Shown piece by piece: positions 27,289-34,132 of a stretch of DNA of 49,417 bases (positions are counted from its first letter, which is position 1; each line of letters begins with the position of its first letter). The position numbers and the translations under genes are program-made. The notes below the pieces were generated by a model. The model was not told where the DNA came from and did no database searches. It worked only from the letters and a program-made list of their open reading frames with translations. The stretch is from Puniceicoccaceae bacterium (GTDB taxonomy: Bacteria; Verrucomicrobiota; Verrucomicrobiia; Opitutales; Oceanipulchritudinaceae). The DNA is taken from assembly GCA_040830765.1 (NCBI GenBank), contig JBFOMH010000008.1:1-49417 (forward strand), read 5' to 3'.

Positions 27289-28140
27289 CTAGTGGCGGTT
27301 TGGTGAAAAGACGGCCAGCAGTTCCGGTACCCGATTGCGCTTTTCACCATTGCAGCTGATCAATCGACGGACCTCGAAGGAAACGATGTGCGCTTCATGG
27401 TAGAGCTGGCGGGTCTTGGCGTTATCATGGTTGGAGATGATAACCGTTGCCCCACGGGCGGCCGATTTGACAGCGAATTCCGCCAACCGATCCTGATCGG
27501 AAGGCCCGAATCCCCCGGAGCTATAACTGCTGAAGTTAGCCGTTGTTGAATGGGGCACATAGGGCGGGTCACAATAGACAACATCCCCTGCCCCCGCCTC
27601 CTCGAAAGTCACGGAGAAAGGCTGGCAACTGAAGGTGGCCTGGCTGGCGGCGCAGGCAAAGGCCTGTAGCTCCTTTTCCGGGAAATAGGGTGCCTTGTAG
27701 CGGCCAAAGGGGACGTTGAAACGGCCCTTGGCGTTGTAGCGGCAAAGCCCGTTGTAACCATGGCGGTTCATGTAGAGGAAGAGCAGGTTCTTGCGGTGGC
27801 GATCGGCACTCCGGTTGAACTCCTCCCGGAACTTGTAGTAGGCTTCCGGACAATTGTTCTCCGGGACAAAGAGTTGGCGACAATCCTCAATAAAGCGCGT
27901 CGGTTCATTGCGGACATCCTCAAAGAGACTGATCAAGTCCGCATTCACATCAGCAATGCGGTTTTGCGGAAGGTCCGCATTGAGAAAGACCGCACCTGCG
28001 CCGGCGAAGGGCTCAATAAGACGTTCCCCGCGAGCCTCCCGAATGAGAGGCAGCACCCGCTCCAATAGGCGGTACTTGTTCCCGGCCCATTTCAGGAAGG
28101 GCCGGACGGGGGAAGGTTTAATCATTTGCGTAGTGCTCAT
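27289..28140 (-). CDS. dam: Dam-family DNA adenine methyltransferase
   Basis: FLKWAGNK, EPFAGAGAV, NRHGYNGLCRYN..G.FNVPFGRY and DPPY. Confidence 0.92.
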   Translation of the reverse strand: MSTTQMIKPSPVRPFLKWAGNKYRLLERVLPLIREARGERLIEPFAGAGAVFLNADLPQNRIADVNADLISLFEDVRNEPTRFIEDCRQLFVPENNCPEAYYKFREEFNRSADRHRKNLLFLYMNRHGYNGLCRYNAKGRFNVPFGRYKAPYFPEKELQAFACAASQATFSCQPFSVTFEEAGAGDVVYCDPPYVPHSTTANFSSYSSGGFGPSDQDRLAEFAVKSAARGATVIISNHDNAKTRQLYHEAHIVSFEVRRLISCNGEKRNRVPELLAVFSPNRH

Positions 28141-28194: not shown

Positions 28195-29202
28195 TCAATC
28201 AGCCTTCTTTCCCAGCACGAGGGACTCTATCGAGGAAAGCTCCGGCCGGCCGCCTCGGTTACCACTCCCGGAACAGGTATAAAGCTTTCCCTTGTAGTTG
28301 ATCACTGCCGAACCGTGCCGCCCCCTCTGCAATGCCGGCCAATCATACCACTCCCCGGATTCCGGGCTGTACACTTCCACTTCATCATGGGCCAGTTTTT
28401 GAGTACCGCTTTCCCCTCCAGCGACCAGGAGGCAACCATCGACAACAGCACTGGAAGTCCCCGCTCGGGGCGTCGGCAAGGGCAGCTCGAGGGTGGCCCA
28501 TCCACCAGAGGCGATATCGTAGACATCCACTTCAGCAACTGTCCTGGAAAAGAGTTCATCCGTTTCGCGGGAAGTCTGGCGACCACCGGCGGAGTAGATT
28601 TTTCCTTCGATAATGACCGCCTGGAAGTGGTCCCGCGCGTGCGGAGCGTCTGGCAGGACCTCCCACTCCCCGGTTGTCGGATTCCAACGATCAAGCCATG
28701 GAACAAATCCACCCATGTGCCCGCGTTGAATGCCGGCAACAAGGTAGATCATGCCTTCATGCTCAACTACGCCTCCCCCACTCCGGCGGCGCTCCACCGG
28801 AATCTCCGGACCCACCGTCCATTCGTTTTTCCCGGGTTCGAAGATGTACATATGCGGCACAGGGGTCTCATTGGGATACTTGCCGGTCATGGCCCCTATG
28901 ACCCAGATTTTCCCTTCGCGTGAAATTGCCTGGAAGTGATGCAGCTCAATCGGTGGAGCCGCCAGCGCCTCCCACTCCCCGGTACCAGGGTCGTAAGCAT
29001 CGACCGGCTGAATCCGTCGCCCGCCAAGGAGGTAGAATTTACCTTCGCATTCGACGAAAGTCGCCTCGTGTCGGGGATGCATGCAACCTGTGACATCCTC
29101 CAGTTCCCAGCCGGAAATGCCCGTGCAGGTGTGGTCTTGATTCTCTGCAAGAACCAATTGTGAAGTCACCAGGATGAGGGAGATTAGGGTCAATGTTCTC
29201 AT
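28195..29202 (-). CDS. Secreted Kelch-repeat beta-propeller protein
   Basis: Signal peptide and six Kelch repeats (YLLGG, YSAGG, LVAGG, V..Y.P....W). Start is ATG 29202 or TTG 29217. Confidence 0.85.
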   Translation of the reverse strand: MRTLTLISLILVTSQLVLAENQDHTCTGISGWELEDVTGCMHPRHEATFVECEGKFYLLGGRRIQPVDAYDPGTGEWEALAAPPIELHHFQAISREGKIWVIGAMTGKYPNETPVPHMYIFEPGKNEWTVGPEIPVERRRSGGGVVEHEGMIYLVAGIQRGHMGGFVPWLDRWNPTTGEWEVLPDAPHARDHFQAVIIEGKIYSAGGRQTSRETDELFSRTVAEVDVYDIASGGWATLELPLPTPRAGTSSAVVDGCLLVAGGESGTQKLAHDEVEVYSPESGEWYDWPALQRGRHGSAVINYKGKLYTCSGSGNRGGRPELSSIESLVLGKKAD

Positions 29203-29269: not shown

Positions 29270-29300
29270 AAAATAAACAGGGCGGCCGAAGCCGCCCCTG
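29270..29300 (-). terminator. Rho-independent terminator
   Basis: The minus strand reads CAGGGGCGGC-TTCG-GCCGCCCTG-TTTATTTT: GC stem, cUUCGg tetraloop and U tract. Confidence 0.85.
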
Positions 29301-29425
29301 GCAGTGTGAGTTGATCTAGATGGCAGGGGATGCACCCGAGGAATCCCTGATGGGAATTCCGAGGAACCAGGTGCCTCCCCCATGTCATGTGGAGATTGTT
29401 GCGCTCAAATGCGTGTGTTCCCTTT
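29270..29425 (-). ncRNA. Candidate ~150-nt structured sRNA or attenuated leader
   Basis: Bounded by a promoter-like motif at 29432-29460 and a terminator at 29270-29300. Internal hairpins include GCACC...GGAATTCCC-ATCA-GGGATTCC...GGTGC. Confidence 0.5.
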
Positions 29426-29431
29426 TAAATG

Positions 29432-29460
29432 CATGCGTCTTTCACGGTTTTCAGGGGTCA
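29432..29460 (-). promoter_or_regulatory. Putative ECF-sigma promoter TGACCC-N17-CGCATG
   Basis: Same two boxes and the same 17-bp spacer as the motif upstream of the kinase gene. Confidence 0.6.
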
Positions 29461-29502
29461 GGAAAGTCCAAATCCATTCTCCAGGTGACCCCAAAAACGC
29501 CT

Positions 29503-29531
29503 TTGACAAAAATGAACGGCCAAATTAGCAT
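29503..29531 (+). promoter_or_regulatory. Sigma70 promoter of the ECF gene
   Basis: TTGACA (29503-29508), 17-bp spacer, TAGCAT (29526-29531). Confidence 0.7.
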
Positions 29532-29584
29532 TTTCCTTTCCTGCACAAGCAGCCCCCGGTGCCGCCAACAATCAGTGTGAGTCC

Positions 29585-30112
29585 ATGCAATCTCCGCCGG
29601 CAGAGGTCCTGGATGCCCTATTTGGGGACGTTTACAACGAGCTGCGCAAGATGGCTCGCGGTCTACTGGTGAACACGCCCCCGAACCGGACCATCCAGGC
29701 AACCGTCCTGGTCCATGAGGCTTACCTGCGGCTCAGCCACACCTACAGGAAGGACTCCGTTAACCGGGCCCACTTCTTCGGGGCAGCGGCCAAGGCCATG
29801 CGGCGGATACTTATTGAGGATGCCCGGCGCAAGCTGAGCCAAAAGCGCGGTGGCAAGTGGTCACGTGTTCCCTTGTGGGAGGTTCAGGTGGCCACAGACG
29901 CCGATCCGGAACTCCTGCTTAGCATCGATGAAGCCCTGAACCGGCTGGCAGTGAACCATCCGGTCGAGGAGGAGGTCGTCCGGCTGATGTTCTTTGCCGG
30001 CCTGACCCAGGCCGAGACAGGTGAATGCCTGAACATTTCTGAACGGACGGTGAAGCGCTACTGGGCATTTGCCAGGTCCTGGCTTTTCGCCGAATTGAAC
30101 GCCAAGGATTGA
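29585..30112 (+). CDS. ECF sigma factor, TIGR02999/ECF43-like kinase-associated type
   Basis: VYNELRKMAR, TIQATVLVHEAYLRL, AMRRILIEDARRK..QKRGG and ISERTVKRYWAFARSWL. Confidence 0.9.
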   Translation: MQSPPAEVLDALFGDVYNELRKMARGLLVNTPPNRTIQATVLVHEAYLRLSHTYRKDSVNRAHFFGAAAKAMRRILIEDARRKLSQKRGGKWSRVPLWEVQVATDADPELLLSIDEALNRLAVNHPVEEEVVRLMFFAGLTQAETGECLNISERTVKRYWAFARSWLFAELNAKD

Positions 30113-30131
30113 CCCGCTGGGCCTTCAGCAG

Positions 30132-30160
30132 TGTCCCATTCAGGGTCTGAATAACGCATG
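30132..30160 (+). promoter_or_regulatory. Putative ECF-sigma promoter TGTCCC-N17-CGCATG
   Basis: Lies in the 60-bp gap between the ECF and kinase genes, 12 nt before ATG 30173. Matches the motif at 29432-29460. Confidence 0.6.
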
Positions 30161-30172
30161 AATTAAGAGACG

Positions 30173-33100
30173 ATGTCCTGTGATGATCCATCTGACAAAA
30201 TCCCTCTATTATTCGAGGAGTGCATTGAAATCAAGGACCCGGAAAAGCGGGAGGAGTACCTCAATGCGGCTTGTGCCGGTTGCGCCAAGGTCCGCGCGGA
30301 GATAGAAAAGCTGCTCCGTGCCCATGAGGCTTCGGGGAGTTTCCTCATGGGAGGCACGCCACCGGGCGTGGCCATGGCCGAAGCGAATATTGACGTTCCC
30401 GACTTCAAGCCGGGTGAGTGCGTTGGCAAATACCGCCTCATGGGGCTAATCGGGGAAGGGAGCACATCGACCGTCTTCCTCGCCGAACAGGAGGAACCGG
30501 TCCGCCGGTGGGTGGCGCTGAAAATCGTCAAACCGGGAATGGACAGCCGCAAGGTCATCCTTCGATTCGGCCTTGAAAGGCAAGCACTTGCCCTGATGGA
30601 TCATCCAGGCATCGCCAAACTCCTTGACGCCGGTGCGACCTCCAACGGGCGGCCGTTCTTCGTCATGGAGCTGGTCTCCGGAACCAGCATCACCCGGTAC
30701 TGCGACGAGCATGAACTCACCCTCCGGGAACGCCTCGAGTTGTTTATCCAGATTTGCAACGCGGTCTTCCATGCCCACCAGCGGGGAATCATTCACCGGG
30801 ACCTTAAACCAGACAATGTCCTGGTCAGTGAGGTCGACGGGCGAACCGTTTTAAAGATTGTCGATTTTGGCATCGCCAAGGTCTTGCACACCTGGGGTGC
30901 CAGTAACGCCACCCGGACAAGTCTGATGCCGTTTATCGGAACGCCGGCCTACATGAGTCCGGAGCAGGTGCAAATGGACTCAACGGCCCTCGATACGCGG
31001 ACGGACATTTACTCCCTGGGCGCCCTCCTGTATGAACTCCTGGTGGGCCATCCACCCTTCGATCCGGAATTCCTGATCGCTGCAGGGCTTGAGGAAATGT
31101 GCCGCATCATCCGCGTTGTCGAACCCGCGGCCCCCTCGGAACGATTTGCCAGCCTGTTGCCCGGGGAACAGGAAAAAATTGCCGAGGCCAGAGGCACCAC
31201 ACCGGGTGAATTGCGCCGTCGCCTGATTGGGGATCTCGACTGGATAACAATCAAGGCCTTGGAAAAGCCACGGGGCCGCCGCTATGGGACAGCCTCAAGC
31301 TTTGCCAGGGATATTAAAAATTACTTTGAGCATCTGCCCGTCTCCGCGGCCAAGCCGAGCCGGCGTTATCGGCTGGCCAAGCTGATGAAGCGTCAACGAA
31401 AGCTGGTCCTGACAGGAAGCATTGCCGCAGCCCTCCTGTTCGCCAGTACGGTGATGGTCACGGTCATGGGGATCCACGCCCGGATCAGTGAAAAACAAGC
31501 CATCGAATCCGAACTGGCAGCGATGGAAGCTGAAAAGCATTCCCATGAGGCCATGGTCTCCATGCATGTTTCTTCGGGCATGGCCGCGGTGGATAACAAC
31601 CGGCCCGATCAAGCAGTCCTGTGGTTTGCCAACGCGGCCCTGAAGGCAGGTGCTGAAAACCGCCAGGCAGACGTCAATTTACGACGGGCCATGTGCTGGA
31701 TGGCCGAGACACCTATTCCCATCGGGGCCTTCAAGCTTGAACCGTCCTTTGCCGAGTTGCGCTTCAGCAGCGATTCCCGCTTCCTTCTGGCCCTTGACGG
31801 GACCGGCAACTGGGAAATCTGGGATGCCCGCATCCGGGATTCACTCCCTTGGACAAAAGAAGTGGGGCCTGTCATAAAGGCCGCATGGAGTCCTTCCGGA
31901 TCCAATCTGGCCGTCATAACCACCGATGGATTGATCGCCCTCTATGAGGCATCCAGCGGTAACCTCCTGCACTCCCTTGAGGTTGACTCATTTCCTGTCT
32001 CCCTGGGCTTCAGCACCGACTCCCGTTACCTCGTATTCGGGAATTCATCCCTTCACGTTTTCGATCTCCAATCCGCCAGCATAGTCCGGGAAATCCCCAA
32101 GTTGCAGGAGGCCTTTGTCGGTTTTGAGTTTTCCTCCAACTCCAACCAAATCGTCGGCGTTACGACGGATGGCTGGGTCAATATTTTCTCCCTTGGACTC
32201 GAGGACCCTCTCGAAGAAACCGGCAAACCTTATCCCCATACAACAGCCATCCGGTCCGAGTCCTGTTCCAGCCGAAGCAACTACCAGCATGAATTCCTGA
32301 GGACTCCCAGGATGTCCATGCCCGCACTGGCTGATTCCGACCAGCGGCTTCTGACCCGAACCGGTGCCTACGAGGTCTCGCTTTGGGATCTTGGCACAGG
32401 TAACCGGATCCAGAAAGTCGAGTCGGCCTGTTGTAGCTGCAAATTCATTACAAGTCCGGAATCCGGTGCGCTTGCCTGCGGCCTGCAGGGCGGAAAAATC
32501 GGCTTGTGGGACATTGCCACCGGGAAGCCCATCCAGCTGCTCCCCTCCACTGGCGGCTGTATCCTGGACATTGCCTTTGGCATGGGCGGCAAGCGACTGG
32601 TCACGGCCGGTGCAGATGGCATGGCGCATGTCTGGGCTGTCGAGGAGGGAAAGGAAGTTCAATCCCCCATGCACCATTGCAGTGACGTGGACTGGGTAGC
32701 GTTTTCAAACAATGGGAAAATGGTCGCATCCGTCCAATCGGACGGCCTCGTCCGCATCTGGAACGTGTTTGACCTCAAGCCGGATGAGCACCAGCCCAGC
32801 GGATTTGCTGTACCGACAATGGTCCATATGGACCCAGCTGGAAGTCACTTCATCCTGACCCGCGAACCCGGCTGGCAAGCCAGCGCGGAGGCCTGCATCA
32901 GCCAGGCCTCGGTGTTTTCAACCTATACTGGATTACCGATCGGTTCGACCTTGCAATACAACGGCTGCGTCGAGGCTGCCGCCTTTTCTCCCGATTCCGG
33001 CATGCTGGCCGTCGGCATGGCACCCTGTGAAAGTGAGGATACCGGCCGGCTCGATTTCTACGATCTGGCCATTGGTCTAAAAAGTGTCACTGGCTTCGCC

Positions 33101-34132
33101 CTTCCGTCCGCACCGGATTCAATCGCCTGGAGCCCGACGGATGGAAACGTCGCTGTCCTTTGCCACTTTGGCGAACTCTTGATGGCCCGGCCCGGTCCTG
33201 ATATGCCCGTTCAGTGGAACGCTGCCTTTGAATCGGACAGGCGCTACCAGAACCAGCAGGTCGCCTTTACACCTGATGGCCAAACGCTTGTCTGCCTCGG
33301 CCGTGATGGGCGCATCCTCGTCCGTGATGCCAGGACGGGTTCTGTCCGCTATCCACCCTTGCTCGCCGGTATTGAGGGTTTCTGGTCCTTTACGCTCTCC
33401 GAGGACAGCCGCCACATGGCAACTTCCACCGTCAATGGGGAAGTGAGAATTTGGGATCTGCTGGAAGGGACCCCGGTCGGCCATGAGCTGACGCATCCAA
33501 GTTGGGTCTATCGCTGTCGTTTCAGTTCAGACGAGCAAATCCTTGTCACTGCGGGACATGATGGAAAGGTGCGGTTATGGAACTGGCGGGAAGGCCGCCT
33601 GGTGACCGAGCCCATGCTCCATCCCCGGGAGGTCTATGACGCTGTGTTCAGTCCTGACGACAAATGGATTCTGACCGCCTGCCGGGACGGGAACATCCGC
33701 ATTTGGGATACGGACCGAGGCCAGCTGCTGGCACCCCCGGTCAAGGTTGGCCTGCAGGCATTCAATGTCCAGGTCACACCTGATGGGGGACGGGCGGTTC
33801 TTGGCAACCTCGGGAACGATGTTTCCATCCTCTCGCTGGACTTGCTGACGGGAGAGCTACCTTACAGCACGGACGACCTTTGCCTGATCGGTGAAGTGGT
33901 TTCCAGTTGCACGGTGGAGTCCGGTTCCATCCGGGACCTGACCTCCGAGGAGTGGCTCGAGCGATACAACCGTATCAGTCGGCTCCATCCTGAGGCGCTG
34001 CAGTCCGGGCAGGCTTATCGCCTGGAAAACCTATCCGTCGAGAAAGCCTCAATATTCCCCACGCCGCTCGGTTCACGGCCGGAACTGCAACGCGAGGGCA
34101 AATACGGCGCTGGGCTTGGACTCGTACCGTAG
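30173..34132 (+). CDS. Hanks-type Ser/Thr protein kinase with TM segment and WD40 repeats
   Basis: VALK, HRDLKPDN, DFG and GTPAYMSPEQ; hydrophobic segment LVLTGSIAAALLFASTVMVTVMGI; many WD/WN-terminated repeats. Confidence 0.93.
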   Translation: MSCDDPSDKIPLLFEECIEIKDPEKREEYLNAACAGCAKVRAEIEKLLRAHEASGSFLMGGTPPGVAMAEANIDVPDFKPGECVGKYRLMGLIGEGSTSTVFLAEQEEPVRRWVALKIVKPGMDSRKVILRFGLERQALALMDHPGIAKLLDAGATSNGRPFFVMELVSGTSITRYCDEHELTLRERLELFIQICNAVFHAHQRGIIHRDLKPDNVLVSEVDGRTVLKIVDFGIAKVLHTWGASNATRTSLMPFIGTPAYMSPEQVQMDSTALDTRTDIYSLGALLYELLVGHPPFDPEFLIAAGLEEMCRIIRVVEPAAPSERFASLLPGEQEKIAEARGTTPGELRRRLIGDLDWITIKALEKPRGRRYGTASSFARDIKNYFEHLPVSAAKPSRRYRLAKLMKRQRKLVLTGSIAAALLFASTVMVTVMGIHARISEKQAIESELAAMEAEKHSHEAMVSMHVSSGMAAVDNNRPDQAVLWFANAALKAGAENRQADVNLRRAMCWMAETPIPIGAFKLEPSFAELRFSSDSRFLLALDGTGNWEIWDARIRDSLPWTKEVGPVIKAAWSPSGSNLAVITTDGLIALYEASSGNLLHSLEVDSFPVSLGFSTDSRYLVFGNSSLHVFDLQSASIVREIPKLQEAFVGFEFSSNSNQIVGVTTDGWVNIFSLGLEDPLEETGKPYPHTTAIRSESCSSRSNYQHEFLRTPRMSMPALADSDQRLLTRTGAYEVSLWDLGTGNRIQKVESACCSCKFITSPESGALACGLQGGKIGLWDIATGKPIQLLPSTGGCILDIAFGMGGKRLVTAGADGMAHVWAVEEGKEVQSPMHHCSDVDWVAFSNNGKMVASVQSDGLVRIWNVFDLKPDEHQPSGFAVPTMVHMDPAGSHFILTREPGWQASAEACISQASVFSTYTGLPIGSTLQYNGCVEAAAFSPDSGMLAVGMAPCESEDTGRLDFYDLAIGLKSVTGFALPSAPDSIAWSPTDGNVAVLCHFGELLMARPGPDMPVQWNAAFESDRRYQNQQVAFTPDGQTLVCLGRDGRILVRDARTGSVRYPPLLAGIEGFWSFTLSEDSRHMATSTVNGEVRIWDLLEGTPVGHELTHPSWVYRCRFSSDEQILVTAGHDGKVRLWNWREGRLVTEPMLHPREVYDAVFSPDDKWILTACRDGNIRIWDTDRGQLLAPPVKVGLQAFNVQVTPDGGRAVLGNLGNDVSILSLDLLTGELPYSTDDLCLIGEVVSSCTVESGSIRDLTSEEWLERYNRISRLHPEALQSGQAYRLENLSVEKASIFPTPLGSRPELQREGKYGAGLGLVP

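Follow-up and report, generated by a model that had tools for sequence, protein, structure and literature searches.

Extracytoplasmic function (ECF) sigma factors of the ECF43 group carry the consensus QTTA in region 2.2, and the Thr of this consensus, conserved in 88% of the members, is phosphorylated in EcfK and EcfP (PMC13147305, part available). For the promoters, the available part of the supplement to PMC7826278 predicts only GTC (-35) and CAG (-10) for ECF43, and lists TGTCACA/CGTC and TGTCGAT/CGTC for ECF41 and ECF42, respectively. The literature searched showed no validated ECF43 promoter, sigma-to-kinase feedback or RNA target; the original EcfP and planctomycete ECF papers lay outside its coverage, and a published consensus there is possible. 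Here we analyze an ECF43-type sigma factor gene and the adjoining Ser/Thr kinase gene in a 49,417-nucleotide stretch (hereafter the window) of the genome of a Puniceicoccaceae bacterium (G000, with C2 and C33 denoting other contigs of the same genome). The genes and three copies of a two-box motif, conserved in orthologous loci, can be read directly from the sequences, as can the position of two further genes, gene A (HAF-repeat protein) and gene B (choice-of-anchor-O protein), behind one of the copies on C2. On balance, we consider it probable that these elements make up a kinase-switched ECF43 regulon, consisting of the kinase's own gene and the secreted-protein operon on C2, and that the divergent motif copy in the window is an orphan.

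The sigma factor, its kinase and the two-box motif

The main features of the window are the following:
29585..30112, + strand: ECF43-type sigma factor, 175 residues, identified by TIGR02999, PF07638 and Thr40 in QATV
30173..34132, + strand: Hanks-type Ser/Thr kinase, 1319 residues, with kinase domain, one predicted membrane helix and WD40 repeats (Pkinase and WD40 matches)
29503..29531, + strand: predicted sigma-70-type promoter of the ECF gene, TTGACA-N17-TAGCAT (promoter scan; conserved)
30132..30160, + strand: predicted ECF43 promoter of the kinase, TGTCCC-N17-CGCATG (kept in 3/3 orthologues; rank 2 in the genome)
29460..29432, - strand: predicted divergent ECF43 promoter, TGACCC-N17-CGCATG (kept in 3/3 orthologues; rank 3 in the genome)

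A preliminary description of this DNA, made from the window alone, had proposed an ECF43-type sigma factor with a conserved Thr in a TIQAT segment, and comparison with relatives supports this. The open reading frame scores 187 bits against TIGR02999 (cut-off 126) and 166 bits against PF07638, i.e. the Sigma70_ECF domain and not separate sigma2 and sigma4 domains, which is a feature of ECF43. So is the sequence QATV in region 2.2, where uncharged residues and Thr40 take the place of the acidic DAED/DxxD motif. The column of Thr40 is invariant, with Thr in 41/41 aligned relatives, and Thr40 is the predicted phosphorylation site of the window sigma factor.

The cognate kinase proposed to adjoin the ECF gene was also found, at position +1 and with a Pkinase match, as is characteristic of ECF43. 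Related sigma loci were gathered (190 in total, 130 after dropping those more than 85% identical, the window's own locus included), and 99 of the 130 have a Ser/Thr kinase in the same place. The catalytic motifs are intact (VALK, HRDLKPDN, DFG and GTPAYMSPE). One membrane helix, another ECF43 feature, is predicted at residues 411-429 from a single hydrophobic peak by simple hydropathy, and the WD40 repeats that follow it are predicted to lie outside the cytoplasm. These repeats stand in place of extracytoplasmic TPR repeats, none of which occurred among the best 25 of 44 matching families; TPR repeats on the kinase typify the proteobacterial ECF43 set and do not define the sigma factor.

Three distinct close orthologous loci were available, namely G007 (represented by L008 and L129, which are identical in sequence and were counted once), L128 and L130, at 77-78% identity. 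The promoter proposed for the ECF gene itself is present, and a TTGACA with a -10-like hexamer at a spacing of 17 precedes the sigma gene in 4/4 loci (the window and the three orthologues), although the promoter scan as a whole returned counts at the level of shuffled sequence (1 vs 1.2), as did the terminator scan (4 vs 2.8). Both two-box motifs are likewise found at 30132-30160 (+) and 29460-29432 (-) with a spacer of 17, and the copy before the kinase and the divergent copy are both conserved around the ECF/kinase pair in 3/3 close orthologues. The divergent copy is a trait of this close clade. TGWCCC-N17-CGCAT is not enriched in the genome, since 8 matches at spacer 17 compare with 1-10 at spacers of 10-25, which is the level of chance. 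It is through comparison across genomes that the motif rises above chance, i.e. through its retention in the orthologues and the ranks given by a promoter matrix trained on 8 sites of other genomes and scored on the whole 4.0-Mb genome. With this matrix the best-scoring site was the one on C2, followed by the two window sites (ranks 2 and 3), and all three are intergenic. The training sites were chosen with patterns resembling those of the preliminary description, so the ranks of the window sites are not fully independent.

An enrichment near ECF/kinase pairs was seen in the wider family. Sense-strand CGCAY (Y, T or C) was found in 41 of the 50 sigma-kinase gaps of at least 35 nucleotides, where about 13 were expected (13.3+-2.7, maximum 18, in 60 shuffles). 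On the reverse strand of these gaps it was found in 8/50, and in shorter gaps in 11/49. Since 30 of the 41 sites are free of ATG, the enrichment is not a start-codon effect, and the relatives in this count are mostly 42-53% identical. The motif consists of two non-palindromic boxes at fixed spacing with a variable spacer sequence; its TGTCCC holds the GTC predicted for ECF43, and its -10 side reads CGCAT or CGCAC, with CGCAG in one orthologue site, against the predicted CAG. Judged from these sequence comparisons, the motif is likely a promoter read by the window sigma factor, and the earlier proposal that an ECF-type promoter serves the kinase gene gains comparative support.

As a side observation, several planctomycete sigma-kinase pairs (L017, L029, L031, L042, L050, L053 and L073) have insertions of a palindromic repeat, resembling repetitive extragenic palindromes, in the gaps around them. 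Another concerns a second TIGR02999 sigma factor of ECF43 type in the genome (C33:18856-19398, L001/L105), whose kinase lies upstream rather than downstream. It is followed by a signal-peptide gene with an N-terminus weakly like that of gene A (domain E-value 0.03), and no TGTCCC/CGCAY promoter was seen at this locus.

Probable target genes on a second contig

The features on C2 are:
C2:81024-80996, - strand: third copy of the predicted promoter, TGTCCC-N17-CGCACG (matrix rank 1)
C2:80955-79450, - strand: gene A, 501 residues, HAF repeat (TIGR02913 above cut-off)
C2:79402-75266, - strand: gene B, 1378 residues, choice-of-anchor O (NF040591 above cut-off)

In 3/3 orthologues the divergent promoter leads into a gene for a long protein with a signal-peptide-like start, namely gene A in L128 and L130 and gene B in G007. 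In the genome under study, genes A and B are arranged as an operon, located on C2 behind a promoter copy of their own, about 40 bases upstream of gene A, which the CGCAT pattern of the preliminary description misses. Over the aligned parts, identities are 58-80% for gene A and 61% for gene B. Gene A is apart from the sigma gene in G007 too, on contig C160, again with its own promoter copy. Together, the divergent promoter at the head of A or B in the orthologues and the promoter copies of A/B in the two genomes point to the secreted proteins A and B as the most likely output of the sigma system. The divergent window copy is homologous to the A or B promoters of the orthologues, and its -35 side deviates from the TGTCCCCTTT of 5/5 target promoters. 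The dedicated RNA that the preliminary description had proposed as output is thus not supported: a protein gene occupies the position in all three orthologues, A and B are on C2 with a promoter copy, and the stretch behind the window copy is unconserved and weakly gene-A-like.

Among 300 genomes of the order, gene A had no match outside the genome under study (G007 was not among the matches listed), which marks the module as patchy. Its 371 homologues, many of them 60-85% identical, bear source names of several phyla, and this breadth, set against the lack of matches in the sampled genomes of the order, suggests that the A-B operon is a mobile secreted-protein module. An extended promoter pattern had 16 matches in viral contigs, none of them near genes A, B, sigma or kinase. 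Neither protein of the C2 operon (81024-75266, L208) has Pfam matches, and a single-sequence fold of gene A was unusable (pLDDT, the predicted local confidence score, of 32). A gene B homologue also lies divergent to a second sigma-kinase pair, in G007 (C250, L209/L104; 53% identical); the leader of this homologue is long and contains nested inverted repeats.

The stretch behind the divergent promoter

Behind the divergent promoter lies a stretch of about 160 nucleotides, here called the stub, with the following parts:
29299..29431, - strand: non-coding stub, likely the decayed 5' end of gene A (alignment to gene A start)
about 29381-29325, - strand: strong imperfect hairpin in the stub (fold)
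29337-29310, - strand: 28-nucleotide stretch in which 21/28 bases match gene A on C2 (core of the alignment)
29270..29298, - strand: intrinsic-terminator-like cUUCGg stem (29298-29279) with U-rich tail (terminator scan)

A small RNA should not be called from a promoter, a gap and a terminator alone. From the sequence comparisons below, we find it likely that the stub is an orphaned promoter followed by a decayed gene A start, more so than that it is a dedicated RNA. The starting point was that gene A begins at the position of the stub in two orthologues. Anchored at the 5' side on the -10 box, the stub aligned to the gene A start of the genome under study with a score of 39, reached by 6/1000 shuffles and 2/1124 intergenic controls, and to that of G007 with 27.5, reached by 34/1000 and 25/1124, respectively; on this scale, scores are 47-86 for true gene A pairs and 11-16 for shuffles. 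The G007 leader before gene B is similarly weakly gene-A-like (6 and 15 of 500 shuffles) and is possibly another gene A remnant. This leader, of about 135 nucleotides between promoter and gene B (L008:2709-2845, - strand), contains a ribosome-binding-like site followed by an ATG and a stop.

Several points weigh against the overall reading. Only three independent orthologous loci underlie the conservation, and the divergent CGCAY is not a family-wide trait (34/125 loci vs 40.8 in shuffles). The -35 side varies among the related loci, but did not covary significantly with the sigma-4 helix (mean -35 identity 0.42 vs 0.29); 34/500 permutations reached this value (p about 0.07), and covariation is therefore not claimed but left as a lead. 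In the close clade the -10 box ends 12 nucleotides before the kinase ATG, so an induced kinase transcript would be nearly leaderless, with an estimated 6-8 nucleotides of leader. In L128, L129 and L130 the ATG within CGCATG shares the reading frame of the kinase; in the window it is followed by an in-frame stop. As for the stub, its alignments to gene A of L128 and L130 are at chance level (512 and 667 of 1000 shuffles reach them), and the four-way sum gives p of about 0.02-0.05, a modest relic signal. Genome-wide searches with nhmmer and protein hidden Markov model profiles did not recognize a gene A fragment in the stub, so the signal is suggestive only, and a relic test at the protein level was null (39/150). 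Finally, the orphan copy retains an intact -10 box, and the central hairpin has an unusual stability, equalled in 5/250 intergenic stretches (top 2%). Among the helix/-35 pairings seen (L013-L175), none of them significant, were ADNDW with TGGGTG, EREW with T.AGG, ADRYW with A-runs and VKRHW with TGTCCC.

The model of the preliminary description, in which transcription from the divergent promoter yields a functional, dedicated small RNA (about 155 nucleotides), young and perhaps derived from an old gene start, with an RNA arm beside the protein arm on C2, appears unlikely to us. In its favor are the intact -10 box with its rank in the genome, the fact that the stub has a promoter and an intrinsic terminator of its own at the right distance (both predicted; the cUUCGg stem is present as reported), and the central hairpin (z -3.3, 0/200 shuffles, in a segment chosen after the fact), as well as the precedent of ECF-driven small RNAs, i.e. 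MicA, RybB and MicL of RpoE (PMC8103513, part available). Once the terminator is removed, however, the fold of the stub has a z-score of only -1.45. An Rfam search of the stub gave no family match (best E-value 6), a sequence search of plasmids none, and no homologue was found among 60 relatives, 8 of which had short weak matches, mostly to terminator or hairpin fragments, with cUUCGg-like stems as the best weak matches in two of the relatives. Nor was there an excess of complementarity to 2693 translation-start regions, and the protein gene at this position in every orthologue also argues against a dedicated RNA. We give a small chance to a variant in which a working small RNA was born from the 5' end of the target gene after the operon had left, the protein arm now acting in trans and a new RNA arm in cis; it would be a rare example, caught in the act, of small RNA birth from a displaced gene start. 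The stub also matches the 3' part of gene A in antisense at 16/17 nucleotides, which was taken as chance (E-value 0.67). Among unstranded contigs from 8 of 10 listed sequencing runs, which carry no strand, end or level information, X3 from an RNA library spans 29306-30238, and X2 and X4-X8 leave the stub entirely or mostly uncovered; neither pattern counts as evidence.

Further along the same strand, about 70 nucleotides beyond the terminator, is another gene:
28195..29202, - strand: Kelch-repeat protein with a signal-like segment at its N-terminus, encoded downstream of the terminator (domain match)

It would be quite improbable, in our view, that the stub acts as a leader or attenuator, with regulated read-through from the ECF promoter now driving this Kelch gene. 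The idea draws on the position and strand of the gene, on the signal-like N-terminus that its product shares with the other targets, and on its own TTGACA, which lacks a good -10 at a spacing of 17. Against it, the predicted structure contains no antiterminator fold, and the Kelch homologues in G007 and G009 adjoin neither an ECF gene nor a stub. Synteny of the Kelch and DUF6268 neighbors was absent from the relatives checked, and the Kelch gene is probably outside the circuit. A gene for a Dam-family adenine methyltransferase is found at 27289-28140 (-) of the window, with no restriction partner seen adjoining it.

We consider it very unlikely that the motif is the operator of some other regulator, or that it was kept by shared descent and start codons alone. 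The chance-level count of the simple pattern in the genome, the insignificant covariation and the in-frame ATG overlap would fit such explanations. The strand-specific enrichment in gaps of relatives as distant as those counted, the non-palindromic form with constant spacing around a variable spacer, and the fact that in two genomes (G000 and G007) the target genes carry motif copies along with them speak for a promoter instead. That the stub encodes a small peptide is scarcely credible: open frames are present, but both ATG frames (40 or 46 codons) have lower scores than 99% of gene ends and extend through the terminator, and the 22-codon tail frame, despite a stop 17 nucleotides before the terminator stem and a neutral coding score, lacks its own start and was not matched in any of 36 family genomes.

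The proposed circuit and described systems

In the kinase-switched regulon that we favor, the sigma factor would be made from a housekeeping promoter, as the conservation of the latter suggests, and the membrane kinase would sense an outside cue through its WD40 repeats. By analogy with EcfP and EcfK, the kinase would phosphorylate Thr40 and thereby switch the sigma factor on. The active sigma factor would read the TGTCCC-N17-CGCAY promoters of its own kinase and of the A-B operon, so that, judging from the comparison of loci, the kinase gene would be subject to positive feedback in addition to being read through from the sigma gene. When the A-B operon moved, it likely left behind the divergent promoter copy of the window; this orphan promoter, rather probably, may still fire, giving a short transcript to the terminator without selected function. 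With such a circuit, an ECF43 sigma factor outside Proteobacteria would have a complete regulon of three promoters that is open to testing, including targets on another contig that are invisible to a reading of the window alone.

The following comparisons draw on the available parts of the cited sources. The RpoE small RNAs MicA, RybB and MicL have known mRNA targets (PMC8103513), whereas the stub is unconserved and shows no target excess. ECF41 and ECF42 resemble the present system in their two-box promoter, with a TGTC start at -35 and CG at -10, and in their very small regulon, but they are controlled by C-terminal extensions, and their -10 element is CGTC where CGCAY is found here (PMC7826278). 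EcfP/PknT of Vibrio parahaemolyticus, an ECF43 system, is alike in that its sigma factor is intrinsically inactive and Thr phosphorylation is predicted to activate it; it has STTA instead of QATV and belongs to another phylum with other outputs (PMC8999054, PMC8103513). EcfK/PknS of Xanthomonas citri, also ECF43, shares several properties with the window system, i.e. a QxT motif replacing the acidic motif in region 2.2, an adjoining Hanks kinase with membrane anchor and outside domain, and outputs that are exported or function in the envelope (PMC13147305). Neither a promoter consensus nor kinase feedback was found described in the available part of that source. The two systems differ in the sensor, which consists of WD40 repeats here, and in the targets, which are a type VI secretion system in Xanthomonas (PMC13147305) and predicted secreted HAF-repeat and choice-of-anchor-O proteins in the present genome.

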